DNA of 15,587 nucleotides from Promethearchaeota archaeon. Lineage in GTDB: Archaea; Asgardarchaeota; Lokiarchaeia; Sigyniarchaeales; SOKP01. Below the pieces are notes generated by a model. The model saw nothing but the letters and a program-made list of their open reading frames with translations. It made no database searches and was not told where the DNA came from. The stretch is taken from NCBI GenBank assembly GCA_004524535.1, contig SDNY01000086.1, positions 1 through 15,587 of the forward strand, given 5' to 3'. Both the position numbers and the translations under genes were made by a program. This document shows, piece by piece, positions 1,444 to 15,514 of the stretch (the first letter of the stretch is position 1; the number at the start of each line of letters is the position of its first letter).

Positions 1444-2214
1444 ATGGTGCTTGAAAAACAAAATGGACCTCAAAATGAAAAATTAGTAAAAATCGTGTGT
1501 CCTATTTGTAAAACTGAAAAAAAATTAACAATTTCAGGGTCAATTCTCAGTACATCAGGAAATTTAACTACAATATCAATTCAAAAAAATGAGATTTGCG
1601 AACATCATTTTCAAGTCTTTATTGATAGAGACTTTAAAGTTAGAGGGTATCAAAAAGTTGATTATGAAATAGACACAGTAAAAAAACTTCCTAAAGGCGA
1701 ATTTTTTATTAAATTAATACTTGTTGGGGATTATCAAGTGGGGAAATCTGCAATTATAAAAAGATTTATTGATAATACCTTTGATGAGGCATATTTACCA
1801 ACACTCCAACTGAAAATTTCAAAAAAAATATTAAAGTTTGGAGAATCAACCGCTAACCTTGTAATTTGGGATGTGGGCGGTCAAGCTATTAGTATGTCCT
1901 CCTATCGAGATCGTTTTTATGAAGGAGCACAATCAGCTATAATTGTAGTGGATAGAACTCGACCAGAAACATTAGAACATGTTGAAAGATGGTATAAAGA
2001 CACCAATAGAGCAATCCAACATAAAATTCCATATATGTTGGTTGGAAATAAATCAGATTTAAACAATGATGTTGTTGTGCAGAAACAAGATTTAGAGGAT
2101 AAGGCTAAAGAGTTCGGTTTAAATTATATAATCACATCAGCTAAGACAGGTGAAAATATTAATGATGCATTTTCAAATTTAACTTATAGATATCTCGAGG
2201 CCCAATTTTCTTAG
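1444..2214 (+). CDS. Rab/Ras-superfamily small GTPase with an N-terminal CxxC...CxHH (putative Zn-binding) domain
   Basis: G1 GDYQVGKS, G2 YLPT, G3 WDVGGQ, G4 NKSD, G5 SAK. N-terminal CPIC (aa 19-22) and CEHH (aa 52-55). No C-terminal prenylation Cys. GTGA lies 5 nt upstream of the ATG. Confidence 0.9.
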   Translation: MVLEKQNGPQNEKLVKIVCPICKTEKKLTISGSILSTSGNLTTISIQKNEICEHHFQVFIDRDFKVRGYQKVDYEIDTVKKLPKGEFFIKLILVGDYQVGKSAIIKRFIDNTFDEAYLPTLQLKISKKILKFGESTANLVIWDVGGQAISMSSYRDRFYEGAQSAIIVVDRTRPETLEHVERWYKDTNRAIQHKIPYMLVGNKSDLNNDVVVQKQDLEDKAKEFGLNYIITSAKTGENINDAFSNLTYRYLEAQFS

Positions 2215-2552: not shown

Positions 2553-3737
2553 TCAACGCTTCAAATTTGCGGAAGCCCAATCGTAATATCCTTTATCATC
2601 CATAACTTTTGGTATCTCTGCAAAAAATTGTGCTGTGATATCCTTCACGTGCTTTGCCGCTATTGGATGGAACATCATTGCAAGATCTAATCCTACCAAA
2701 GATAAGCATAATGCATTAATGACTTCCCATATTGGGCCTCGATACTGTCTTAATCCCCATTCAGGAGCTTGCTTTTCGCTCATCCATGCCTCACGAGCAC
2801 CCCACGCGTTTGTAGTACCTCCACTGATTGGATAAGCTAAATCTTTTTCGCCTAAAAGTCCAGCAATGCGCATTCTTTGGTAAATACTAAAGGAATACTC
2901 CATACCATAGCCTAATGTAGCACAGGTAGGGTCCATTACTATGCGATTTGGCGGAAGTCCTAACTCTATAGCGTCTTTATTCATTTTAATTTGATTATTA
3001 AGGTCTAAACTCGTCCACAGGAGACAATTATGATCGTATTTAACAGCTAATGGGATTTAATGGCAAATTGGGAAATCCAATTCGCATACATCTTCCCATG
3101 TAGCTTTATCTGCAGCAGAGAGCATTAAAACTTCGCTTTCAGTGGCTGCAGCGGTAGCTTTAAACATTTCGACATCTTTTTCTTTATTTCCAGAGCATCC
3201 AATTATTACAGGAACATCAACTGCTTGAAGAATTTCTTCTAAATACCTTACAGACTGACTAACTGGTGCGTCTCCCATAGCAGGGTCGATTTCTAATGAA
3301 TGAAATGTGATCGACTCAGCTCCAAACTTATTTACAGCAAATTTTGCCCATTCAGCAGGATGTCCTAAGACATCTCCATATTCTTGTTTGATTGGCTTTG
3401 GAAGCATCATTTTTGACCCCATATCAAACACATCGTAGGTTACCAGAGGAGGATGGGGATTTCTTTTATCAAGTCCTAAAAAGTTGTAAAATGGAGGTAC
3501 TTTTTCACCGCCAATTGTACAAGTTTTTCCGTTTGATCGAATGAATTGGATTGTTTCGATTTCTCCAGGAAAATTTATATCAAGCGAAAATTTTGTAGGC
3601 GTCCATTCAGCTTTTCCGAGCTTTGGAATTCCAACAGCCCCGGCTGCTGTTGATACGATGCTAGGTAATACTTGAAATTCTAAATAATCGGCTACTAGAT
3701 CTACGTCCACAAGTTCAAGTTCTTCGGTATCTTTCAT
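2553..3737 (-). CDS. cdhD: Acetyl-CoA decarbonylase/synthase (CODH/ACS) delta subunit (corrinoid Fe-S protein small subunit); intron-containing, join(3087..3737, 2553..3056), 384 aa spliced
   Basis: ORFs 3057-3737 and 2553-2984 are in the same frame and are the N- and C-terminal parts of CdhD (IGGEK.PPFY, DVFD, PAEWAK, VDVPVIIGCSGN.EKD; RIVMDPT..LGYGMEYS, TNAWGAREAW, GPIWE, MMFHP). Removing 3057-3086 gives a continuous ...SAADKATWEDV|IPLAVKYDHNCLLWTSLDLNNQIKMNK. The true start may be ATT at 3776. Confidence 0.9.
3057..3086 (-). other. 30-nt BHB-type intron in cdhD mRNA
   Basis: Minus-strand RNA: UGGGAA GAUG UA|U GCGAAUUGG AUUUC CCAAUUUGC CAUU AA|A UCCCA. Central helix GAUG/CAUU, bulges UAU and AAA, 9-bp intron stem, exon helices AUGGGA/UCCCAU and AGCUA/UAGCU. 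The intron ends in an in-frame UAA. Confidence 0.85.
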
Positions 3738-3971
3738 TAATTCTGCTAATTTCTTACTAAGATCTTCGAAAGAAATTTTACATCACGTTATATTTCGTTT
3801 TTTAATATTTAAATTGGTAAAACTATAAATTTAATTATTGAAATTAATAATGATTTAAATACATAGCGCGACGAAATTAGTCATTTAAGTTCAAAAATAT
3901 TAAAGAATTAAAGAGAAAATTTTATCAATCTGATCGCTATTCGAAGAAATCCTTCATTATTATATTTTCAC

Positions 3972-5858
3972 CTAAAACAAATAGTTCCCTTTTATAATTC
4001 CTTCATAGATTTCTTTTGTCAAAGGAATATATTCTGAACTTTCTGGTAAAAGAACAAATACAGGATCATCTATTTCATTAATATTATAACCCTCTTTTTT
4101 TAGCTTTACTTTTTGAATCTTATGAGTGGCGGTAAAGCTAAATTCCGTTATAAAACGGATAAATTTGGGTACAGCGTAATGTGGTAAATATTTTTGTAGA
4201 AAATTTAAGAGACCTTTGAAATCGAATTCTTCACTATACCTTCTATGTATTGATACCATCCCTGCCCGACCCTCTGTATGTGGGATTAGAACTCCATACA
4301 CGGAGCACATATCGATTTGCTCGAATGTATTAATTACTGATTCCACTTCCTCAGACGAGACATTTTCACCCTTCCATCTGAAGGTATCACCTAAACGATC
4401 GACAAATTGAACATGCCCAAATCCAATATCTCTTAAGAGATCCCCGGTATTGATAAACATATCATCTTTTCTAAAGACCTCACGAAATACTTTTTTCTCT
4501 GTTGCTTTTTTGTCTATATACATGAAAAAATTTTCGGGTTCTTTTATTTGACCTAAACATAATCCAACTTCACCTGGCCTTACTCTTTTCATTCGACCTC
4601 TCTCATTTCTGATCGGTTCATCTTTTTCTATATCATATTTTACAATCGCATAAGGTGTTAAGCATACTCCACAAGTCTTATCAAGATTATGAATATTGGC
4701 AAAATTTGGCACAAAATCCTCTGTTGCACCATAAAACTCTCTTATTTCTTGGATATTAAATCTTTTTTTGAAATCCATCCAAATATCTGGTCTAAGTCCA
4801 TTCCCAACTATTTTTACAATGGGATTATCCGCATCGTCTGGCTTTGGAGGGTGATTATACAAATATCTACATATTTCCCCTACATAATTAAAGCATGTGG
4901 CGTTTAATTTTCTAACTTCATCCCAAAAGTTACTTGCACTGAATTTTCTGCTAATCGCCATTGCCGATCCTTCATAAAGGGTTGCAGCAAAAGCTACTTT
5001 AATACCATGACTATGAAATAATGGAGTCGTAATATATAATATATCATCATTTTTCATTCCAACCACCATTCCTCCCCACCACATCATCGCAGTCAATATT
5101 GAACTATTTTGCAGAATTGCAGCCTTTGGAAGTCCCGTAGTACCTGATGTGAAAATGTAGACAAAGGGATCTTTCATCAAAATCTCTGTCGTGGTCGGAG
5201 GATTATTAACGTCTGAATCCTTAATCTTTTCTTTAAGATTAATATATCCTTCAGGGATTTTCATTATACCTTTATCCGGCAAAAAAAAGAGCATTTCTTT
5301 TTGCTCATCTGTTAATTTTAATTTGGATTTAACATTTTCAAATGCGTTAATTAATTCTTCTCCAATTATGTATACTTTACCGGGAGTATGCGTCATACTA
5401 TGAATAAGTGGTTTTTCACGAAGGTTTGAGTTTATCAAGGAAGATATCACTCCTAATTTACCCATTGCAACAACAATAAACATATATTCCGATCGATTTT
5501 CCATGAAAACAACAGCTACATCCCCTCTATTTAGACCTAATTTAAGAAAATAATTCGCATATCTGTTAACCATCTCATTGAACTCTTTATGCGTATATTT
5601 TTCATCTTCATAAAGTAGGGCCAAATTATCAGGATATTTCATGGCGTGTTCTTCAATTCGAAGTCCTATAGAGTACTTTGTATCGAGTGTATGTTCGCCC
5701 ATCCATAATGCCTCTTTTAATATCATAGGAGTTTTCACCTCCCAAGATGGTTTGATTATGTTATTATATTCTTCTTTGGATATAATATATGGCTTGTTTT
5801 CCTCCCCGTTTTGAGCTTTTTTTCTGGATGATGATATTTCTGATTTTTGATCATTCAT
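3972..5858 (-). CDS. Long-chain acyl-CoA synthetase, FATP/very-long-chain ACS type
   Basis: AMP-binding YIFTSGTTGLPKAA, YITTPLFHS, FSASNFW, YVGEICRYL, GNGLRPDIW..F..RF, EFYGATE, and the FATP signature DRLGDTFRWKGENVS..EVE, EGRAGM. Confidence 0.9.
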   Translation of the reverse strand: MNDQKSEISSSRKKAQNGEENKPYIISKEEYNNIIKPSWEVKTPMILKEALWMGEHTLDTKYSIGLRIEEHAMKYPDNLALLYEDEKYTHKEFNEMVNRYANYFLKLGLNRGDVAVVFMENRSEYMFIVVAMGKLGVISSLINSNLREKPLIHSMTHTPGKVYIIGEELINAFENVKSKLKLTDEQKEMLFFLPDKGIMKIPEGYINLKEKIKDSDVNNPPTTTEILMKDPFVYIFTSGTTGLPKAAILQNSSILTAMMWWGGMVVGMKNDDILYITTPLFHSHGIKVAFAATLYEGSAMAISRKFSASNFWDEVRKLNATCFNYVGEICRYLYNHPPKPDDADNPIVKIVGNGLRPDIWMDFKKRFNIQEIREFYGATEDFVPNFANIHNLDKTCGVCLTPYAIVKYDIEKDEPIRNERGRMKRVRPGEVGLCLGQIKEPENFFMYIDKKATEKKVFREVFRKDDMFINTGDLLRDIGFGHVQFVDRLGDTFRWKGENVSSEEVESVINTFEQIDMCSVYGVLIPHTEGRAGMVSIHRRYSEEFDFKGLLNFLQKYLPHYAVPKFIRFITEFSFTATHKIQKVKLKKEGYNINEIDDPVFVLLPESSEYIPLTKEIYEGIIKGNYLF

Positions 5859-5981
5859 TTTGCATCGTTTTTAAAAATTTAAGAGTCTGTTTAAAATTAA
5901 TTTAACATCTCTATTATATAATTACTTTACCCAAATTTTTAATTTTTAGACACTAATAGACATTAAATTAATTGAAAGAAT

Positions 5982-6473
5982 TTAAAGAATTCTTTTCCTA
6001 GCAAAATTAACTAGTCCATTAGATTGAATTATTTCTTGTATAAAAGGGGGCATCCTCATAATTTTGTATTTCTGTTTTGTCGAGCAATTATTAAGAATCC
6101 CTTCTGTAAATTCTATTTCTATCTCATCACTGGTATGAAGTTCATCAAAATCTTTAAATTCTATAATTGGCAATCCGATATTAATACAATTTCTAAAAAA
6201 AATTCTCGCAAAGGAGGGTGCTATTATACATTTAATTCCAGAAGCTTTAAGTGCGATCGGGGCTTGTTCTCTACTTGAACCACAGCCAAAATTCATCCCC
6301 CCAACCATAATTGTAGCCCCCATTTCTTTTAGTTTTTCATTAAAGTCAGGATCTAAATCTTCCATACAATGCTCGGCTAAGTAATCAGGATCGGATGTAA
6401 TTAAATATCTTGCTGGAATTATCAAATCAGTGTTAATATTCTTTTCATCATATTTTATTACGTTTCCTTTCAA
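5982..6473 (-). CDS. leuD: 3-isopropylmalate dehydratase small subunit (LeuD/HacB family)
   Basis: NINTDLIIPARYL, NFGCGSSREQA, SFARIFFRNCINIGLP. Specificity loop YLIT (not the homoaconitase-type YLRT) favours LeuD. TTG start preceded by GGTGG. Confidence 0.88.
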   Translation of the reverse strand: MKGNVIKYDEKNINTDLIIPARYLITSDPDYLAEHCMEDLDPDFNEKLKEMGATIMVGGMNFGCGSSREQAPIALKASGIKCIIAPSFARIFFRNCINIGLPIIEFKDFDELHTSDEIEIEFTEGILNNCSTKQKYKIMRMPPFIQEIIQSNGLVNFARKRIL

Positions 6474-6494
6474 TTTTTTCCACCATTGATTTTA

Positions 6495-7766
6495 TTATAG
6501 ATAATTAGGGGCTGTGATATAACCTTTAATTGCGGAAGCGGCTGCAACTGCAGGACTCGATAGGTAAACTTCGCTTTCTATATGACCCATTCTTCCAACA
6601 AAATTTCGATTAGTAGTCGATACCGCTCGCTCTCCCGCAGCAAGTACACCCATAAATCCGCCTAAGCAAGGTCCGCAAGTAGGAGTTGACACGATAGCTC
6701 CCGCATTAAGAAATATTTCTATCAAACCTTCTTTTAAAGCTTCAAGATAAATTTGTTGTGTGCCAGGAATAACGATGCATCTTACATTTGAATGTATTGT
6801 TTGAGTTTTTAATATTTTTGCGGCTATTCTTAAGTCTTCTAAGCGTCCATTGGTACAAGAACCGATAACAGCTTGCTCAATTTCGACTTTCATTCCGTCT
6901 ACTTCAGATATTGGCTTAGAATTCTCCGGTAAATGAGGAAATGCCACTTGAGGCTCAATATTATTACAATCGAACTCGATTACATTAAAGTATTCAGCAT
7001 CCTTATCGCTATCATACATTTTATATTTTTTATTTCCTACTTTTTTTAAATAAATTTCAGTAATTTTATCAGGAATAATTATTCCATTCTTTCCGCCGGC
7101 TTCTATTGCCATATTACACATCGTAAATCGATTTGGCATTGATAACTTTTTAATTACATCTCCTGTAAATTCCATGGCTTTATAAGTCGCACCGTCTACT
7201 CCTATTTGACCAATTGTATATAGGATTAAATCTTTTCCTGAAACCCAATCTTTTAATTTACCATTGTAGACAAATTTAATCGATTCAGGGATTTTAAACC
7301 AACATTGTCCTAAAGCCATTGCTACGCCTAAATCTGTTGATCCTACACCAGTAGAAAAAGCTCCAAGGGCACCATAAGTACATGTATGAGAGTCAGCACC
7401 AATAAAAACTTCTCCAGGAGAGACTAATCCTTGCTCTGGAATAAGACAATGTTCAATTCCAACCCGACCAATTTCGAAATAGTTGATTATTTGATTTTTA
7501 TGAGCAAATTCTCTGAGTATTTTACATTGTTCAGCAGAGGCTACATCTTTATTAGGAGTGAAATGATCTGGAGTTAAAATAACTTTATTTTTATCAAATA
7601 CACTTTTTCCAGTTCCTTCAACTATTTTCTCAAATACTTGTATAGCAATTGGAGCGGTAATGTCATTTGCAAGACATTTATCAATATTGGCTAAAATAAA
7701 ATCTCCTGCTGAGACGTTATTATTGCAATGCTCTCTTAAAATTTTTTCTGTTATTGTAAATCCCAT
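6495..7766 (-). CDS. leuC: 3-isopropylmalate dehydratase large subunit (LeuC/HacA family)
   Basis: [67 protein letters not shown]. The three 4Fe-4S cysteines are present. Adjacent to leuD. Confidence 0.9.
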
Positions 7767-7907
7767 ATCATTGTAGCCTATTTAATATTTGTCAAGATAC
7801 TCAATTATTTAAATTTGAAAATAAATCATATTATAAATTTTTACTTCTTTCTAATATTATCTTTAAAAAATTAATCGAAGAATTCTTAAAAAATTAAAGT
7901 TAAAAAA

Positions 7908-9047
7908 ATGCCATCTATAGCTCATTTAGTATTAGGTGGAGTAATTGCATTATGTTTTTATTATATAAGTGATGGAAAATTTACAAAAACCCATGCGTTC
8001 ATATTTTTTTTATGTAATTATTTAGGACCAGATGTAGGTTGGGTATTTGGTATAGGCCGCATTACACATTCTCTATTATTTTGGCCTCTATTTGCATTAA
8101 TTTTAGCGTATTTTTATCATTATTTTACTAGATTTACAATTAAGATTGATGGGATAAAAAATATAGAATTAACAGATTTAGAAGGGTATAAATTACATTA
8201 TTTAAATACTTACTTACTAGTATTGGGAGCAGGTATTTTACACCTAAACTTAGATGGACTAATGAATAGATGGGGTAGTTTTCGAATAATCCCTCAACTT
8301 CCTTTCAATGATGAGGAAGTATTTTTTACTTTAAGGCAACTAATTGCATTTGGAGAAGAAGGAGTCCTTCAAATTAATATTCTTATAGCAATATGTATTG
8401 GAATAACTTTAATTTTTGGATTTATTTTCATTTTTATTTGGTTTCTAAAGAAAAATACAAAAACAAATGCAATAATAATTTGTATTTACATCTTGGCATT
8501 TGTAATTTTCTTTTATTTAGCTGGCTCTATAATTACAATGTTCCATCCTGATGGGGGAGCCATTATATACATTAGTATTTATTGGGCAATACCATTAATT
8601 TTATGTGTTCTTTCTATAAGAGAGTTTAAATTTATAAAAAGAAATGAAAATGGATTAATAAATCTCAAAAGAAAAAATATTGATAAAAGTCTTAGAAAAT
8701 TGTTTTTTGTAATTAGTTGGTTGTTTATAACAGGGATATCATTCATGATTGCATCAATCTATGGTTTTATTTTTAATGATGTCATATTAAAACGTATTTT
8801 TTCTAATTATGGGGATGAAATATCACCATACTTTAGTTATAATGAATTGTATACATTGGTTATAGTAATAGAAGTTATAGTTTTAGTTATAGCTTTGTTA
8901 AATTTATTATGCGGGATTGGACTATTATTTAAAAATAAAAATATATGGAATTTCACTGTATACTATCATCTTGTTTTTTCTTGGACGTTAATTGGTTTAA
9001 TCATAGCATGTGTACTGAATGAAAAATCCGTGAAAAATAAATTTTAA
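7908..9047 (+). CDS. Polytopic membrane protein, putative metal-dependent hydrolase (YdjM/DUF457-like N-terminal part)
   Basis: Many hydrophobic segments. Motif series AH..., GPD, R.THSL, H..LD is typical of YdjM-like membrane hydrolases. The C-terminal TM extension is unassigned. Confidence 0.6.
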   Translation: MPSIAHLVLGGVIALCFYYISDGKFTKTHAFIFFLCNYLGPDVGWVFGIGRITHSLLFWPLFALILAYFYHYFTRFTIKIDGIKNIELTDLEGYKLHYLNTYLLVLGAGILHLNLDGLMNRWGSFRIIPQLPFNDEEVFFTLRQLIAFGEEGVLQINILIAICIGITLIFGFIFIFIWFLKKNTKTNAIIICIYILAFVIFFYLAGSIITMFHPDGGAIIYISIYWAIPLILCVLSIREFKFIKRNENGLINLKRKNIDKSLRKLFFVISWLFITGISFMIASIYGFIFNDVILKRIFSNYGDEISPYFSYNELYTLVIVIEVIVLVIALLNLLCGIGLLFKNKNIWNFTVYYHLVFSWTLIGLIIACVLNEKSVKNKF

Positions 9048-9126
9048 AATTAAATTATATTTCGAAATTTTTTTCAGTTATCTGCTATTATTCCTATTAT
9101 TAATGATTTTTTAGGCTGATTATTTC

Positions 9127-10011
9127 ATGGACAATCTAATATTAGAAAAGTTAGAGTTTGAAAAATTCCATGGTTTAGGTAATGATTACATAATAATTAA
9201 CGATATTCAGTGGAAAATTCCTGATGAAAAAAAGTCAGAGTTAGCAAAAAAATTATGTGAAACGCATTTCTCAATAGGAGCAGATGGTTTAATTTTCGTG
9301 GTCAATTCAGATAAAGCAGATATTGGAATGCGCATTTTTAATCCCGATGGTTCGGAATCGGAGATGTGTGGTAATGGGATTAGATGCTTTTCGAAATATA
9401 TATACGAAAATAATATAATTAATAAAAACGAAATAGACATCGAAACTCTAAAGGGTATAATAGTTGCGAGACTTAGAATTATTGATAGTAAAGTTAACAG
9501 CGTAACAATTGACATGGGAGCACCTATATTAGATTGTAAAAATATACCGGTAATTTCACCAGAAAATGAGAATACTTGTTTAAGCGAGCCGCTTGAGATT
9601 TTAGATAGAAAATTTATTTTTTCAGCCGTTTCAATGGGAAATCCACACGCTGTTATTTTTATTGACGAGGAATTAAATGATGACGACTTGGAAAAATATG
9701 GTGGTGCCATTGAACCACATGAGCGGTTTCCAAATAAAGTAAATGTAGAATTTGTTAAAGTTTTATCTGATACAGAAGGTATTTTAAGAGTTTATGAAAG
9801 GGGGGTAGGTATAACTAAATCTTGTGGTACAGGAACATGCGCATCGGTGGTTGCTGGAACAAAACTAGGAAAATTTAGAGAAAATACGCCCATTACTATA
9901 CATAATGATGGGGGAGATTTGATAATATCTTATATAGTAGGTAAAACTGTTTTTATGGAAGGTCCGGTTGAGAGAGTTTTTAAAGGAGTAATTGAAAATT
10001 TAAAAGTTTAA
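9127..10011 (+). CDS. dapF: Diaminopimelate epimerase
   Basis: KFHGLGNDY, IGADG, IFNPDGSESEMCGNGIRC, SMGNPHAV, NVEF, YERGVG.T.SCGTG. Both catalytic Cys are present. Confidence 0.95.
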   Translation: MDNLILEKLEFEKFHGLGNDYIIINDIQWKIPDEKKSELAKKLCETHFSIGADGLIFVVNSDKADIGMRIFNPDGSESEMCGNGIRCFSKYIYENNIINKNEIDIETLKGIIVARLRIIDSKVNSVTIDMGAPILDCKNIPVISPENENTCLSEPLEILDRKFIFSAVSMGNPHAVIFIDEELNDDDLEKYGGAIEPHERFPNKVNVEFVKVLSDTEGILRVYERGVGITKSCGTGTCASVVAGTKLGKFRENTPITIHNDGGDLIISYIVGKTVFMEGPVERVFKGVIENLKV

Positions 10012-10056
10012 CCAATTATATTGGAAATAATTAAATTTCCAAATTTATTACCTATT

Positions 10057-11373
10057 ATGATGGATTACGAAGAATGGCTAAAATCTAAAGATTTGGAATA
10101 TCGTGAAGGAATCCTATATATGGCAGGTGTCAATACTGTAGACATTGCTGAAAAATATGGCACACCAATTTATGTTATAAACGAAGATTTGATTAGAAAA
10201 CGCTATAAAACGTTGAAGAAAGAGCTTGATTCAGTTTATAAAAATAACCAAATTCATTTTGCTGTGAAAGCCAATTCAAATTTGTCTGTTCTGAAGATTC
10301 TTAAATCTCAGGGAGCCTATTTTGATTGTAGTTCTACAGGAGAAATATATGCATGTTTTAAAGCAGGAATATCATCTGAAAAAATAATATATACAGGAAA
10401 CATGTTTACTAACGAGGATTTTAAATTCGCTGTAGAGAATGATATTTTAGTTAATCTGGATAGTATCAGCCAATTAAAGAGACTTTCGAAGGTATACGAA
10501 GATTTAGGAAAAGAAAAAAATTTAATTTCTTTTAGAATAAATCCTGAATTTGGAGCCGGACATCATTCACATACGATAACGGCAGGAAAAGACATAAAAT
10601 TTGGTATTTTAGACAACCAAGTAATTGAGGCTTATTCTAAAGCAAGAGAATATGGATTTAAAAAATTTGGTACACACATTCATGTAGGTTCCGGAATTCT
10701 TGATCCTAATGATTTTGATAAAGCAAGTGAAAAATATTTAACTATCGTCATGAAATTAGCAGATACTCTTGATATTAAGTTTGATTTTGTAGATTTTGGT
10801 GGAGGATTAGGCATTCCTTATCGTCCAAAAGAAGTTCCATTAGATTTAGAAGAATATAAGAAAGTTGTTATAAAAAGATTTAAAGATTTAATTGAAAAAG
10901 TAGATATGGATCAAGTAGATTTTAAAATTGAACCAGGCCGCTACATAACAGCTGAAGCAAGCATAATTTTAACACAAATTAATACAATTAAAGACAATGG
11001 ATACAAACTATTTGCTGGAGTAGATGCTGGATTTAATACTTTAATAAGACCTACTATGTATGGGTCATACCATCACATTATAGTTTGTAAAAAAAATTCT
11101 AAAGAAAAAACACAAAAATACGATGTGGTTGGACCCATTTGCGAATCTGGAGATGTTTTTGGGAAGGATCGAGAGTTACCTGAGTTATTTGAAGGAGATT
11201 ATTTAGCAATCCTCGATGCTGGTGCTTATGGATTTACAATGAGTAGTCCTTATAATTCACGCCCTCGACCTGCTGAAGTTTTACTTAATGATCAAAAATC
11301 TTATCTGATAAGAAAAGCAGAAACATTTGATGATTTACTCTCACATCAGGAAATCCCAGATCACTTAAAATGA
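10057..11373 (+). CDS. lysA: Diaminopimelate decarboxylase
   Basis: YGTPIYV, FAVKAN (PLP lysine), HIHVGS, DFGGG, EPGR, GPICESGD, GAYG..MSS.YNSRPRP. The ORF track starts at TTG 10021, but that codon is inside a hairpin, so ATG 10057/10060 is more likely. Confidence 0.93.
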   Translation: MMDYEEWLKSKDLEYREGILYMAGVNTVDIAEKYGTPIYVINEDLIRKRYKTLKKELDSVYKNNQIHFAVKANSNLSVLKILKSQGAYFDCSSTGEIYACFKAGISSEKIIYTGNMFTNEDFKFAVENDILVNLDSISQLKRLSKVYEDLGKEKNLISFRINPEFGAGHHSHTITAGKDIKFGILDNQVIEAYSKAREYGFKKFGTHIHVGSGILDPNDFDKASEKYLTIVMKLADTLDIKFDFVDFGGGLGIPYRPKEVPLDLEEYKKVVIKRFKDLIEKVDMDQVDFKIEPGRYITAEASIILTQINTIKDNGYKLFAGVDAGFNTLIRPTMYGSYHHIIVCKKNSKEKTQKYDVVGPICESGDVFGKDRELPELFEGDYLAILDAGAYGFTMSSPYNSRPRPAEVLLNDQKSYLIRKAETFDDLLSHQEIPDHLK

Positions 11374-11464
11374 ATTTCTTTTTTTCAGAAAATCAAAATT
11401 TATAAGAATGAGATACTTTTATAAAATTGAGAATTAATAGGGCTTGGATACCCCTTATTAATTC

Positions 11465-11531
11465 TTGATGATGAGTAGGCGTTATGAAACCTATTGATAG
11501 GTTAATGAAATAACTGATCTGCTCTGATCAA
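11465..11531 (+). ncRNA. Box C/D-like small RNA with two K-turns
   Basis: C box ATGATGA 11468-74; D'-like ATGA 11484-87; hairpin AACCTA/TAGGTT 11488-11503; C'-like ATGAAAT 11505-11; D box CTGA 11524-27; terminal TTGA/TCAA. It is intergenic, with TATA-like TTTATAA boxes near 11400 and 11418. Confidence 0.6.
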
Positions 11532-11606
11532 CTTCTTAAACGTTACTATATATCTCTCTGTTATTTTATTGATTATATGTAGAAAAATATAGAAAAGTGA
11601 AAAAAC

Positions 11607-12347
11607 TTGGATCTAATATATGAACTATTTAATGCAGATTTACCAAGACAAGGACCGGGAGATAATAAATCTACAAAAAAGGCATTTTCTTATCTAACAG
11701 AATTACCTTCAAAACCTTTTATCTTGGATGTGGGATGTGGTAATGGTATGCAAACATTAGAATTAGCCAGACTATCAAATGGAAGAATATTAGCATTAGA
11801 TAATCATCAACCTTATCTCGATGTTCTAAATAATAAAATCAAGATTATGAATTTTTCTCATAGAATAACTACAATAAATCAATCTATGCTTGATATGAAA
11901 TTTGATGCTAATAAGTTTGATGTTATCTGGTCAGAAGGAGCGGCTTATAACTATGGATTTGAAAAAGCTCTTGAAGATTGGCAATTTTTTCTTAAAGAAA
12001 AAGGATATCTCGTGTTTTCAGAGCTATGCTGGTTTAAAGAAAATATTCCGAAAGAAATATATGATTATTTGATGAGTGAATATCCAGCGATGAAAAATGT
12101 AGAAGAAAATATTACATTAATAAAATCCAAAGGATTAGATTTGATCTTTCACTTTAACATTCCCGAATCAAGTTGGTGGGATAATTTATACATTCCTTTA
12201 GAGAAAAATATTCATAAGATACGCAAGAAATACAAAAATGATAATGAAACTCTTGACCAACTAAAGTTATTTAACGAAGAAATTGAAATGTTTAGGAAAT
12301 ATTCAGACTATTATGGATATACATTCTTTATTATGCTTCATCAATAA
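11607..12347 (+). CDS. Class I SAM-dependent methyltransferase
   Basis: LPRQGPG N-terminal motif, motif I ILDVGCGNG, FDVIWSEGA, YYGY.FFI C-terminus. TTG start 6 nt after GTGA. Confidence 0.88.
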   Translation: MDLIYELFNADLPRQGPGDNKSTKKAFSYLTELPSKPFILDVGCGNGMQTLELARLSNGRILALDNHQPYLDVLNNKIKIMNFSHRITTINQSMLDMKFDANKFDVIWSEGAAYNYGFEKALEDWQFFLKEKGYLVFSELCWFKENIPKEIYDYLMSEYPAMKNVEENITLIKSKGLDLIFHFNIPESSWWDNLYIPLEKNIHKIRKKYKNDNETLDQLKLFNEEIEMFRKYSDYYGYTFFIMLHQ

Positions 12348-12381
12348 ATCTTCTTTTCATAAAGAGTAAAAAAAAACCTTA

Positions 12382-13203
12382 TTACAAATTTAAGACTTCA
12401 CGCGTATTATATATCTTGTTTTCTCTCGCATTAGCAATAAATTTTATAGCAATTATAGCACCACTAGCGAAGCAGTTACGACTATGAGCTTGATGTTTAA
12501 ATTCAATACGTTCGCCAGGACCTGCGTATAGGATTATGTGATCCCCTACAATATCCCCTGCTCGAATGCAATGTATTCCAATTTCGTTTTTGGCACCTTT
12601 CTTTCTTAACGCTGGACCTTTTGGACGCCCATATTTAACGATATCATCCATTTCAACCCCGAGTGTATCACATATTGTTTTTGCAATGGTTAAACTGGTG
12701 CCTGAGTAATTATCCCTTTTTCTTATATGATGACTTTCAATGATTTCAATATCCCAATCCTTCAAATATTCGGTCAGAACTGAAGCCATTTTAAAGAAAA
12801 TATTAACTCCTGTTGCCATATTTGACGAAATAACAGCTGGTGCATTATGTTCTTTTGCTTTTTTTTCAAATTCTTCTATAAATGAATTAGATAATCCAGT
12901 TGTTCCAATAACACATCGGATCTTATTTTCAACGCAAACCATGCAATTTTTTTCTGCAGCTTCGGCTAAAGTAAAATCAACAGCAACCTCAGGTTTTGTT
13001 GCCTTAATTACCTCTTTAATTTCCGTAATATTACTTATTTTTACATGATTCGGGTCCTTTTTGCCCACTAAAACTCCTAGCTCATCACCTATATTTATTA
13101 CATCGCATGCTGCAACAATTTCAATTTCATCCTCGTCAAAAGCTAACTGACTGATTAACCTTCCCATTGAGCCCGTTGGACCTAAAATTAATAGTTTAAT
13201 CAT
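12382..13203 (-). CDS. dapB: 4-hydroxy-tetrahydrodipicolinate reductase
   Basis: G.TG.MG Rossmann motif, VDFT, VIGTTG, SSNMATGVN, E.HH..K.D..SGT, RAGDIVGDH, H.AHSR..FA.GA. Confidence 0.93.
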   Translation of the reverse strand: MIKLLILGPTGSMGRLISQLAFDEDEIEIVAACDVINIGDELGVLVGKKDPNHVKISNITEIKEVIKATKPEVAVDFTLAEAAEKNCMVCVENKIRCVIGTTGLSNSFIEEFEKKAKEHNAPAVISSNMATGVNIFFKMASVLTEYLKDWDIEIIESHHIRKRDNYSGTSLTIAKTICDTLGVEMDDIVKYGRPKGPALRKKGAKNEIGIHCIRAGDIVGDHIILYAGPGERIEFKHQAHSRNCFASGAIIAIKFIANARENKIYNTREVLNL

Positions 13204-13228
13204 ATTTAACCCTTTGATGTTCTATTAA

Positions 13229-14137
13229 TTAAATTATATTTAATTTCTTGAGAACATTTTTTATTTTTTCACAGTTCGCATCTAAGGGAGGACTTAGTGG
13301 CAACCTCATCCTTTTATTCATAATATCCATTAGTTCAGCAGCATATTTCACTGGTCCTGGATTAGACTCAATGAATAATACTTTAAAGAGATCATACAAT
13401 TCTAATTGCATTTTCCTTGCTTTATCCCAATCACCAGCATTCATTGATTTTGTGAATTCAAATATTTTAGCAGGTATTATATTTGATGCTACGCTTATAA
13501 CGCCGATTCCACCTAATGCCATGATATGATAGGTCATACTGTCATCTCCACTTAACATAATAAAATCATCAGGAGCATCTTTGATTATTTGAGTAATTTG
13601 ATCAATATTGCCACTTGCTTCTTTAATTCCAACAATATTATCTTTTTTATTTGCTAATTTTACTACTGTATCAGGATCCAAATTTCTTACCGTTCTACTT
13701 GGTACGTTGTATAGTATAATTGGTAAAGAGGTTGAATCTGCTATAGCAGAATAATGTTCTATTAATGAATGTTGCATGGGTTTATTATAATAAGGGACAA
13801 CCACTAATAATCCGTCTGCACCAATTTTTTCAGCATATTGACATAATGAAATAGACTCATATGTAGCATTACTTCCTGCCCCAGCAAGCACAAAGGGATC
13901 TTTTCCTGATTTTTTAGCCTCATCTACTGTGATCTTTATTGCTTGATGATGCTCCTCATGTGATAACGTTGCGCTTTCTCCAGTTGTACCCATAGTTAAA
14001 AGCTGACACCCATTATCAATTTGGAATCTTATAAATTCTCTATATTTATCCTCATCTATTGTTAAATCTTCGTTTAACGGTGTAATCATAGCCGTAATGG
14101 CATTCCTTAATTTATCTAATTTATTAAATTTTGACAT
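13229..14137 (-). CDS. dapA: 4-hydroxy-tetrahydrodipicolinate synthase
   Basis: TAMITP, GTTGES.TLS.EEH, PYYNKP, LYNVPSRT, GIKEASG (Schiff-base Lys), LSGDD, GVISVASN, ESNPGPVK. Lies directly upstream of dapB. Confidence 0.95.
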   Translation of the reverse strand: MSKFNKLDKLRNAITAMITPLNEDLTIDEDKYREFIRFQIDNGCQLLTMGTTGESATLSHEEHHQAIKITVDEAKKSGKDPFVLAGAGSNATYESISLCQYAEKIGADGLLVVVPYYNKPMQHSLIEHYSAIADSTSLPIILYNVPSRTVRNLDPDTVVKLANKKDNIVGIKEASGNIDQITQIIKDAPDDFIMLSGDDSMTYHIMALGGIGVISVASNIIPAKIFEFTKSMNAGDWDKARKMQLELYDLFKVLFIESNPGPVKYAAELMDIMNKRMRLPLSPPLDANCEKIKNVLKKLNII

Positions 14138-14239
14138 AATATTTCTTCCTTATTTAATTTAATAACTATTTAAAATATTATTTGGAAAGTATCATTTATA
14201 AGAGTTATTGATAATTCCATATAAAGGAAAAAGTTGAAG

Positions 14240-15514
14240 TTATTTCTTTTCTTTTTCCAATTTCTTTTTGATTAAAAAACCCATTTTGCTCTGAAGTCCA
14301 AACAGAGGAATAAAACCATAACTTAAATTTTGATTAAAGGTACTAGCTGTTTCATAAGTTGCTAAGTTCATATCATATATTCCATAAGGAGATTCCCTTG
14401 CTACAACCTCTGCGCTTCCTTTAAATAATTTTACTTTAACGCTACCAGTTACTTTTTTGTTTATTTCATTTATAAAAGCATCTAATGCATCTTTTAAAGG
14501 ATCAACCCATAATCCCTCATAAGCTAACTCAGACCATCTCTGATCTACCATGTTTTTGAAGGAATTTTCTTGCTTAGTACATACATATTTCTCAAGATCT
14601 TTATGCGCTTTAATAAGCATTAATGCTGCAGGAACTTCATAAGTTTCTCTTGATTTTAATCCAATGGCTCGATCTTCCATGTGTTCTATTCTTCCAACAC
14701 CATGCTTACATCCTAAATCGTGTAATGTTCTTAATAAGTCAATACTACTCATCTTTTCCCCATTTAAACCTACTGGAACTCCTTCTTCAAAATTAATAGT
14801 TATATATTCAGGCTCATTGGGAGCCTTCTCAGGAGCAATTGTCCATTCTCTCGAATCTTCAGGCGGTTCAATTTCCGGGTGTTCTAAAATATCACATTCT
14901 GCACTTCTTCCAAAAAGATTCTCATCAATGCTGTATTTCTTATATTTATTGACTGGAATACCATGTCTTTCTGCGTATTTGACTTCCTCATCTCGCCCCA
15001 TATTCCATTCAATTAAGGGTTGTAATACCTCGATTTCTGGAGCGTACGCATTTGCTGTAATATTAATTCTAATCTGATCGTTTCCTTTCCCAGTACACCC
15101 ATGTGCTACTACGGAAATTCCTTCCTTTTTAGCAATTTTAATTGCTTCTATTGCAATTAAAGGTCTCCCTACGGCAGTGCTTAACGGATATATCCCTTGA
15201 TATAACCCATTGGCTTTAATTGTAGGAAAAACATAGTCTTTTACAAATTTTTCTTTTAAATCTACTGTGAAATGTTTTACCGCACCTAATTTATACGCTT
15301 TTTCTTCGATTTCTTCAAACCTTGTTGGATCAGCAAATTCTTGACCTAAATCAGCTGTAAATGTATAGATTTTGGCGCTATATGTTTCTTGAAGCCACTT
15401 AATCATGCAGGAAGTGTTTGATCATACATACATCAATTGTATATATTCTAATCCTCCTGAATACATTAATAAAATCTTATCGTATTTATCCTTTTTGGGT
15501 CCTAATTGATTCAT
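14240..15514 (-). CDS. argG: Argininosuccinate synthase; intron-containing, join(15448..15514, 14240..15417), 414 aa spliced
   Basis: The body has YPLSTA.GRP, HGCTGKGNDQ.R, YSIDENL.GRS.E, GLKSRE.YE.P. The ORF-track protein lacks the N-terminal PP-loop. ATG 15514 reads MNQLGPKKDKYDKILLMYSGGL, and removing 15418-15447 restores YSGGLDTSCMIKWL. Confidence 0.93.
15418..15447 (-). other. 30-nt BHB-type intron in argG mRNA
   Basis: Minus-strand RNA: CAGGAG GAUU AG|A AUAUAUACA AUUGA UGUAUGUAU GAUC AA|A CACUUCCUG. Central helix GAUU/GAUC, bulges AGA and AAA, 9-bp intron stem with one G-U, exon helix CAGGA/UCCUG. In-frame UGA at 15424-15422. Confidence 0.88.

Follow-up and report, generated by a model that had tools for sequence, protein, structure and literature searches.

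A class of ~30-nt tRNA-type introns probably interrupts many protein genes of an Asgard archaeon

The window, a 15,587-nt stretch of contig SDNY01000086.1 of a Promethearchaeota archaeon, carries two essential minus-strand genes, cdhD and argG, that are each interrupted by 30 nt. The first exon of cdhD (3087..3737, minus strand) begins with an ATG at 3737, ends in ...TGGGAAGATGTA and matches positions 7-138 of the Pfam CdhD profile; its open reading frame (3057..3737) closes inside the insert (3057..3086, minus strand) at an in-frame TAA (3059..3057). The second exon (2553..3056, minus strand) lies in the same frame as the first and matches profile positions 160-227, and the stop of the insert is the sole interruption of a single-frame translation. 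Read from 3086 to 3057 with its flanks (dots mark boundaries), the insert is laid out as ...UGGGAAGAUGUA·U GCGAAUUGG AUUUC CCAAUUUGC CAUU AA·AUCCC. All 16 aligned orthologues present an exact 30-nt gap at this place; orthologues read ...ATWE(D/E)V·IPLAVK uninterrupted, and removal of the insert here yields WEDV·IPLAVKYDH.

The first exon of argG (15448..15514, minus strand), defined from translation, consists of MNQLGPKKDKYDKILLMYSGGL plus the G of a split Asp codon and aligns with 12 intron-less orthologues whose N-termini are full-length. It is followed by an insert (15418..15447, minus strand) carrying an in-frame TGA, which reads from 15447 to 15418 as ...CAGGAGGAUUAG·A AUAUAUACA AUUGA UGUAUGUAU GAUC AA·ACACU, and by a second exon (14240..15417, minus strand) that matches the Pfam Arginosuc_synth profile from position 16 onwards. 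The insert interrupts the conserved SGGLDTS, and its removal gives SGGL·DTSCMIKWLQE. An exact 30-nt gap was observed in 12 of 15 aligned loci, and the insert occupies the same site in three genomes (G000, G008 and G011). Gene callers start argG at an ATG at 15406, which results in a truncated protein of 388 aa; public databases already contain such shortened ArgG entries (388-389 aa, with the ATP-binding motif missing), and the seven that we inspected all start with M(I/L)(K/I)WLQE. Translation and orthologue gaps bear out an earlier sequence-only reading, which had placed two frame-keeping, stop-carrying 30-nt inserts at these positions, and the gaps show that the inserts are not simply hairpins arisen by chance.

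Both inserts fit the geometry 1+9+5+9+4+2 = 30 with different stem sequences, as had been proposed. Their stems are 9/9 paired when G-U pairs are counted, and in both, exon positions -6 to -3 are complementary to the 4 nt in front of the terminal AA and pair with them. On the minus strand, the central helix of cdhD joins exon GAUG (3089..3092) to intron CAUU (3059..3062), with 4/4 pairs at the canonical register, and that of argG joins exon GAUU (15450..15453) to intron GAUC (15420..15423), with 4/4 pairs in each of the three genomes. The 5' bulges comprise 3088, 3087 and 3086 in cdhD and 15449, 15448 and 15447 in argG, the exon-intron boundary following the second base. With four central pairs and 3-nt bulges, both inserts present the canonical BHB fold of tRNA introns, an architecture that the sequence-only reading had recognized. 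In the MFE fold of cdhD, a 9-bp stem closed by a 5-nt loop, a 4-bp helix and an outer helix are present, together with two bulges of 3 nt each. Across the three argG introns, all 39 pair cells (100%) are paired and one A-U to G-C double change is found; this covariation alone, from three sequences, is not significant, since 176 of 500 shuffles do as well.

We consider it very likely that these inserts are archaeal BHB introns in protein genes, cut by EndA and joined by RtcB. The gene would be transcribed with the insert included, and the pre-mRNA would fold into a helix, a 3-nt bulge, a 4-bp helix, a 3-nt bulge and a helix, built from the 9-bp hairpin and the pairing of exon positions -6 to -3 with intron positions L-5 to L-2, often together with an exon-exon helix. 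In each bulge, a heteromeric EndA would then cleave behind the second base, and ligation by RtcB would bring the exons back into the conserved reading frame; an intron of ~30 nt, probably circular, would be released. Because the inserts bring stops or frameshifts, full-length protein would be made from spliced RNA only.

We then analyzed the extent of the family by a motif-free alignment to 2.54 Mb of a sister genome, which covers 49% of this genome (estimated to be 99% complete), with follow-up scans added. This identified at least 24 inserts in protein genes, distributed over at least 22 genes (22 inserts are tabulated), in agreement with the prediction that many more copies would exist. The hosts include RNA polymerase A' (two inserts), EF-2, ribosomal protein S10, CdhA/C/D, AOR, acetyl-CoA synthetases, Elp3 and NifU. 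One RNA polymerase A' insert splits GHFGH·IELARP, and EF-2 reads TDSDDEEQ after insert removal, matching the sister genome. Most inserts are private to one species, and one RNA polymerase site is apparently occupied in 16 of the 121 genomes sampled from the family. Such differences among sister species imply that gains and losses of inserts occur over short evolutionary times. Both the restriction of most inserts to single species and the stop or frameshift that each one brings could point to MITE-like or repair-scar hairpins that stay in the RNA of pseudogenes. But the core genes among the at least 24 cases (RNA polymerase A', EF-2, S10 and CODH/ACS subunits included) mean that not all hosts can be dead genes. 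The reading frames on both flanks are intact, the argG and rpoA inserts are kept across genera with structure-preserving changes, and the same inserts occupy core sites of tRNA and 23S rRNA, so that we regard this explanation as highly improbable.

Transposon or MITE footprints, which the sequence-only reading had named as counter-evidence, were rejected. No related copies of the inserts were found in the genome (the best off-target match, at 95%, spans 20 nt; pairwise identity averages 34%), and similarity between hairpin and flanks is at the permuted level (5.05 vs 5.06-5.09). Repeats at the boundaries range from 0 to 4 nt, indicating that there is no target-site duplication of fixed length.

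The proposed introns share several features. Of the 22 curated introns, 12 measure 30 nt and the others 29-34 nt, and at the RNA polymerase site two further genomes have introns of ~40 and ~50 nt; 30 nt is thus the commonest length rather than the uniform one initially described. Base statistics were drawn from 16 thirty-nt introns (12 from mRNA and four from tRNA or rRNA). The final two bases are A in 15/16 and 13/16 of them, so that the 3' AA noted in cdhD and argG generalizes. The loops of these two start with AUU; in the wider set, A at position 1 and U at position 3 were each found in 11/16, and U at position 4 in 13/16. The upstream exon motif GGARGAU at -10 to -4, in contrast, is restricted to cdhD and argG (2/22 curated introns) and appears coincidental.

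All introns of a length divisible by three (12/22) contain an in-frame stop. Only 65% of intron frames contain a stop, and 12/12 therefore has a probability of ~0.001 (hand calculation from per-intron fractions). We found none of the stop-free copies that had been predicted to hide as 10-aa insertions. The remaining 10 introns have lengths not divisible by three, and all three codon phases are occupied. These lengths bear on the possibility that ribosomes skip the inserts. Programmed translational bypassing is exemplified by phage T4 gene 60 and by the byps of yeast mitochondria, whose size range covers that of our inserts, and the inserts are likewise short hairpins with stops within coding sequence. 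Yet bypassing is difficult to reconcile with the non-triplet lengths and the use of all three phases, with take-off and landing codons that match in only 1/22, or with the same inserts in untranslated tRNA and rRNA. Moreover, it gives no role to the 4-bp helix between exon and intron, and we judge it very unlikely.

The BHB structure was evaluated on 33 inserts of 28-34 nt in coding regions, defined by alignment. A perfect 4-bp helix was found at the canonical register in 15/33, as compared to 0-2/33 at eight shifted registers, 1/33 on the antisense strand and, among 1000 permutations, a mean of 2.4 and a maximum of 8. The outer helix between the exons has on average 3.95 contiguous pairs vs 2.43 +/- 0.28 for permuted exons, a value reached by 0/1000 permutations. 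This outer helix reaches at least 4 bp in 10/22 curated introns and falls below 4 bp in 12/22; several present just 3/4 central pairs or mismatched stems. Processing these weaker introns would require an enzyme of relaxed specificity. Searching for the structure directly, as the sequence-only reading had suggested, gave no excess over background: a relaxed hairpin-plus-helix scan yielded 7529 matches vs 7425 in a dinucleotide shuffle, and its frame-merging matches numbered 13 vs 8-20 at random positions. Structure by itself does not stand out in this genome of 30% G+C, and the family emerged from the motif-free comparison with its follow-up scans.

The RNA polymerase site provides a further comparison. 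Four introns from four genomes have unrelated stems, but 96.2% of 52 pair cells are paired, and RNAalifold recovers the BHB unaided. Double-sided changes occur in 8 of 13 pairs, which none of 500 shuffles reaches, and slid controls gave 36-50%. Such same-site inserts in independent genomes argue against removal from DNA, or expression from intron-less variants in the population. In support of that scenario, relatives' intron-less cdhD alleles are found in the same kinds of sediment, with a 30-letter gap at 3057-3090 in their metagenome contigs. These contigs differ from the window, however, by 83 other letters over ~2 kb in one case and 79 over ~0.6 kb in another, which indicates separate lineages, and we know of no precise DNA-elimination system in archaea. 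We therefore consider this scenario extremely unlikely.

BHB introns of the same form are also found in this genome's own tRNA and rRNA genes. A tRNA-His is recognized only once three inserts (30, 30 and 29 nt) are taken out, the T-arm of tRNA-Gln holds a 30-nt insert, and comparison to the Rfam archaeal LSU model locates a 30-nt insert in 23S rRNA after GAAGACCCCG. The introns of cdhD and argG are thus members of a single mini-intron class that is also present in tRNA, 23S rRNA and other protein genes. The genome encodes one RtcB (561 bits) and two EndA paralogues of ~200 aa, each with N-terminal and catalytic domains (two PF01974 matches over the cut-off). Reading their sequences against the catalytic triad tentatively suggests alpha and beta subunit roles. 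Asgard EndA has been described as an (alpha-beta)2 type with a loop conferring broad specificity (PMC5829648). The nearest named ArgG proteins belong to Promethearchaeota, Promethearchaeia or Lokiarchaeota, and on this protein evidence the host is an Asgard archaeon, as the sequence-only reading had supposed.

EndA and RtcB would be the enzymes that process these mRNAs, and their splicing would presumably be efficient. Another hairpin-recognizing cleavage and ligation system, comparable to SOS splicing in animals, could alternatively remove the inserts from RNA. The dominant feature of the inserts is a 9-bp inverted repeat, a good outer helix is missing in about half of the introns, and the loop preference A-N-U-U-N corresponds to no known EndA requirement. 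SOS splicing is an existing hairpin-triggered, RTCB-linked mRNA repair that excises paired-inverted-repeat inserts without the spliceosome and thereby hides the insertion (PMC12779559), but it acts on multi-copy animal transposons with terminal inverted repeats, whereas our inserts are 30-nt, single-copy sequences with BHB geometry. Such a system appears unlikely to us: the 4-bp helix and 3-nt bulges lie exactly at the EndA register, and the same inserts are present in tRNA genes, for which EndA is known as the splicing enzyme.

Splicing of mRNA by a protein endonuclease and an RNA ligase has a eukaryotic parallel in XBP1/HAC1, where IRE1 acts with RtcB or Trl1 on a short structure-defined intron with a twin stem-loop motif and the reading frame is changed. 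This unconventional splicing is mentioned in PMC13149111. It relies on IRE1 and one regulated target, unlike the many apparently constitutive targets and the EndA proposed here. Within Archaea, protein genes are regarded as essentially intron-free, and the mRNA precedents that we found in the literature are only two, one in a coding region and one in a 5'UTR (PMC7714728). The first is the BHB intron of the cbf5 pre-mRNA in Crenarchaeota (Watanabe 2002; Yokobori 2009, PMC2738675), called the only coding-region example as of 2020 (PMC7714728). It resembles our introns as a tRNA-type intron within an archaeal protein gene, with lineage-specific presence and gene mis-prediction; its hosts have a hetero-oligomeric endonuclease, and loss has been inferred. 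However, cbf5 represents one gene and one intron, whereas a single genome here has at least 24 sites spread over at least 22 genes, and the hosts found here are other genes, including those of core information processing and the Wood-Ljungdahl pathway, with a ~30-nt class and turnover between sister species. The second is a BHB intron in the 5'UTR of HVO_1309 of Haloferax volcanii, for which cleavage of the mRNA by the archaeal splicing endonuclease has been demonstrated (PMC7714728). This single case lies in an untranslated leader and leaves the reading frame uninterrupted, in contrast to the interrupted frames reported here. Finally, tRNA genes of Asgard archaea are described as heavily interrupted, following BHB logic with repeated gains, with two EndA paralogues in most genomes and no mobile-element route found (bioRxiv 10.64898/2026.10.13.758758). 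That study concerns tRNA genes only, and its text contains the word "mRNA" 0 times; our inserts extend to protein genes and 23S rRNA.

Overall, these results suggest that the cell probably must splice many mRNAs prior to translation. We also lean towards the broader view that one ~30-nt BHB class has colonized the tRNA and rRNA genes of this Promethearchaeia family along with dozens of its essential protein genes, amounting to proteome-wide splicing independent of the spliceosome. If these genes are spliced, gene callers would systematically split or truncate them, and the fast turnover between sister species would offer a natural experiment on intron origin, a question that the tRNA-intron work leaves open. 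Intron invasion of coding genes, and the conflict between splicing and coupled translation, would become directly amenable to study in the prokaryotes most closely related to eukaryotes. On the broader view, nearly every copy would block translation until it is spliced out, and an organism related to the eukaryotic ancestor, yet lacking a nucleus, would rely on such mRNA splicing across its proteome. Ribosomes would somehow have to be kept off unspliced transcripts, or abortive products be tolerated, and the enrichment of in-frame stops would represent a selected fail-safe.

Two genes in the window, cdhD and argG, both on the minus strand, are interrupted by an insert. By sequence inspection, the cdhD insert occupies positions 3086..3057 and the argG insert positions 15447..15418 (minus strand, 30 nt each). 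Both open with 1 nt, followed by a 9-bp stem that closes a 5-nt loop; after the return stem come 4 nt that pair with exon positions -6 to -3 and then a terminal AA, exactly the placement and geometry described in the sequence-only reading. The cdhD gene forms a single open frame (3737 to 2553) whose sole interruption is a TAA, and its halves match the CdhD profile in consecutive segments (positions 7-138 and 160-227). The ORF finder places the start of argG at 15406, with the first 15 profile positions missing; this N-terminus is found in frame upstream, behind a TGA. The predicted junction peptides of the spliced products are ATWEDVIPLAVK and YSGGLDTSCMIK. The Pfam profile search of the window further identified a nitronate monooxygenase, a Ras-family GTPase, an AMP-binding enzyme, aconitase subunits, DapF, LysA, DapB and DapA. 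The Ras-family small GTPase (1444-2214, plus strand) carries about 89 residues before its Ras domain, which begins at residue 90. An ORF of 379 aa (7908-9047, plus strand), located between an aconitase gene and dapF, matches nothing in Pfam at E <= 0.001.

We searched 40 related genomes with each of the two proteins and compared the DNA at and near the insert sites by alignment. Exactly 30 nt are absent from all 16 other aligned cdhD loci, including that of the sister genome (G008), and these loci read WE(D/E)V directly followed by IPLAVK. Contigs of relatives from three sediment metagenomes also present gaps at 3057-3090, of exactly 30 letters in two records (X6 record 24 and X2 record 1) and 34 letters in the third (X3 record 9). 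For argG, 12 of the 15 aligned loci show a clean 30-nt gap and the reading SGGLDTS; the three loci with an insert at the identical site belong to the window's genome (G000), to G008 and to G011, a member of another genus. The argG intron is 100% paired across these three genomes with one double change, a covariation that is not significant with only three sequences. The nearest named ArgG proteins in the protein database come from MAGs of Promethearchaeota, Promethearchaeia or Lokiarchaeota, which confirms the suspected Asgard host. About 20 of the best 120 database ArgG matches are 388-391 aa long, as counted from their listed lengths. All seven short entries inspected (P0001, P0005, P0017, P0043, P0055, P0077 and P0097) start with M(I/L)(K/I)WLQE, immediately past the argG intron site. 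Since these database entries begin there, the argG interruption is probably common among environmental Promethearchaeota and annotated as a truncated enzyme.

The sequence-only reading had proposed that such inserts form a genome-wide family that a structural model could enumerate. A relaxed scan for bulge-helix-bulge (BHB) hairpins yielded 7529 matches in G000 relative to 7425 in the shuffled sequence, and the frame-merging matches of the structure scan numbered 13 relative to 8-20 at random positions. A looser scan that required the terminal AA returned 118 mostly unconvincing matches. The fixed 30-nt model did recover 9 of the 12 known introns, and gave 62 frame-merging matches relative to 35-51 at four decoy registers. 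Structure alone is therefore no basis for a census. G000, of which the window is contig C8, comprises 3.66 Mb in 198 contigs with a G+C content of 30.4%; because structure scans by themselves are useless in this A+T-rich genome, we used a motif-free alignment to the sister genome instead.

In this comparison, 2.54 Mb of G008 was aligned to G000, with a coverage of 1.78 Mb (49% of G000), and we considered non-repeat indels of 18-70 nt within open frames of 100 codons or more. The indel lengths peak at exactly 30 nt in G000, with 13 inserts relative to a single one in G008. We found 33 inserts of 28-34 nt, defined without reference to structure (27 in G000 and 6 in G008). At the canonical BHB register, where the exon-intron helix is flanked by 3-nt bulges, 15 of them form a perfect 4-bp helix, relative to 0-2 at eight shifted registers, 1 on the antisense strand and a mean of 2.4 (maximum of 8) in 1000 permutations. 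After correcting a few boundaries misplaced by the aligner, we curated a set of 22 protein-gene introns. Several candidates were dropped from this set as ordinary or uncertain indels: the 27- and 24-nt units of a repeat protein (contig C65 and its G008 counterparts), three inserts on C99, and those on C107, C187, C106 and C81. A 26-nt alignment gap in the Ras GTPase gene of the window was also dropped, the gene being intact. A second RNA polymerase A' intron (31 nt, between DEDG and LPIPSG) and one EF-2 intron were found beyond the curated set. The proposed family is thus borne out, with at least 24 introns in protein genes of G000, 23 of which are not present in G008. By simple scaling from the compared 49%, G000 would have about 40-50 copies of its own. 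Shared introns such as that of argG probably raise the total, since two of the 62 fixed-geometry matches are identical in G008 (C100, plus strand, 23205; C165, minus strand, 624; 0-based strand indices). Further frame-merging 30-nt candidates with the geometry of the family are located where G000 had no sister sequence for comparison: C98 (minus, 11131), C189 (minus, 1495), C181 (minus, 15930), C148 (plus, 3001) and C134 (plus, 3700).

The 22 curated introns measure 30 nt (12 introns), 29 nt (3), 31 nt (2), 32 nt (3) or 34 nt (2). They begin with A in 16 cases, end with AA in 17 and occupy all three codon phases, and a loop preference, A-N-U-U-N, is visible. Where the length is divisible by three (12 introns), an in-frame stop is present in every case, whereas only 65% of intron frames contain one. 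The complete helix-bulge-helix-bulge-helix is seen in many of the minimum-energy folds, cdhD being a textbook case. The outer exon-exon helix averages 3.95 pairs relative to an expectation of 2.43 +/- 0.28. It reaches 4 bp or more in only 10 of the 22 introns, and about half of them thus represent relaxed motifs. The upstream exon motif GGARGAU, also proposed as a shared feature, did not hold: it occurs in two of the 22 introns, solely those of the window.

Such inserts could represent footprints of MITEs. However, we found no sequence copies of the introns, either among themselves or elsewhere in G000, and no fixed target-site duplication at their boundaries; nor did we find hairpin similarity to the flanks. 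Ribosomes might alternatively hop over the inserts, but take-off and landing codons match in only one of the 22 curated introns. Finally, the inserts could be lesions that produce pseudogenes, a reading contradicted by the essential nature of the hosts. Identified by Pfam, the hosts include proteins of information processing (RNA polymerase A' with two introns, aEF-2, ribosomal protein S10 and Elp3), carbon metabolism (a CODH/Prismane (CdhA-like) protein, CdhC, CdhD, AOR and two acetyl-CoA-synthetase-type enzymes), cofactor and iron-sulfur metabolism (NifU, a corrinoid adenosyltransferase and a B12-binding protein) and eukaryote-like signalling (a Ras-like GTPase and a ubiquitin-conjugating E2). 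The others are an ABC ATPase, an FAD-binding oxidase (two introns), PmbA/TldD, a BcrAD/BadFG ATPase, a DeoC aldolase, an MBL-fold protein and ArgG. The Ras-like host is a second such GTPase, encoded on C161. In a genome that is 99% complete, these hosts cannot all be dead genes. In-frame stop counts for CdhA across relatives were discarded because many of the counted stops fall upstream of the gene, the stop-to-stop query beginning with non-coding residues.

The same inserts are found in tRNA and rRNA genes, which further argues against the pseudogene, MITE-footprint and hopping readings. The tRNA-His gene of G000 (C179, minus strand) contains three inserts of 30, 30 and 29 nt; ARAGORN recognises it only after their removal, which leaves a normal 73-nt tRNA. 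In the tRNA-Gln gene, the T-arm is interrupted by a 30-nt insert. This search used a reduced candidate set, whose 12-14-nt "introns" we did not trust. The 23S rRNA gene (C174:55000-57000, locus L232) has several inserts, with a site near 56312: one of 30 nt after GAAGACCCCG (position ~2170 of the Rfam archaeal LSU model), one of 31 nt further upstream (position ~1757) and one of 133 nt that is not in G008. ARAGORN detected only 12 tRNAs in G000, none of them arrayed. In G008, it detected 27 intron-less tRNA genes within 3 kb (locus L114, G008:C22:20001-40000, locus coordinates ~10303-13335). Possibly, this array is a tRNA island of mobile or viral nature in a host with intron-rich tRNA genes of its own.

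We further analyzed the conservation of the RNA polymerase insert located between GHFGH and IELARP. This insert is 30 nt long and lies at the identical site in four genomes of three genera (G000, G006, G021 and G010) with quite different stems. When the four are aligned without gaps, 96.2% of the pair cells contain a pair (36-50% in slid controls) and double-sided changes occur at 8 of the 13 pairs, a covariation reached by none of 500 shuffles. Synonymous codon changes alter the exon side of the 4-bp helix, and the intron side tracks them. Without guidance, RNAalifold predicts the BHB and a long exon-exon helix. Longer inserts are present at this site in G023 (~40 nt) and G020 (~50 nt). Of 150 genomes sampled across the class, 141 gave a match; nine presented 10 extra codons with stops and seven were split at residues 85-87. 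The site is apparently occupied in 16 of the 121 matching genomes of the window's family (G000 included) relative to none of the 20 from other families, ten of the 16 cases being suggested by match lengths or splits only.

The inserts might be removed by some other hairpin-recognising system, but this is less economical than EndA, the archaeal splicing endonuclease, which the exact BHB register favours. G000 encodes two EndA paralogues of roughly 200 aa each (in the regions of C100:31106 and C84:30615) and one RtcB ligase. One paralogue presumably keeps the histidine of the catalytic triad and the other lacks it, and the pair therefore fits an (alpha-beta)2 enzyme. Asgard EndA is reported to be an (alpha-beta)2-type enzyme with a loop that confers broad specificity (PMC5829648).

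Earlier reports offer two mRNA precedents, the cbf5 intron of Crenarchaeota (PMC2738675) and a 5'UTR intron of Haloferax (PMC7714728), the latter text naming cbf5 as the sole further mRNA case. Asgard tRNA genes are described as heavily interrupted in a 2026 preprint, with no mention of mRNA (bioRxiv 10.64898/2026.10.13.758758). Among the full texts searched, no description of BHB introns in protein-coding genes of Asgard archaea came up, and one may still exist. Our results support and extend the core of the sequence-only reading, that tRNA-type introns are present in mRNA, from which these mini-introns would be spliced. As judged from the genomes, the mechanism would be the already known BHB splicing, here with previously undescribed scale and targets.
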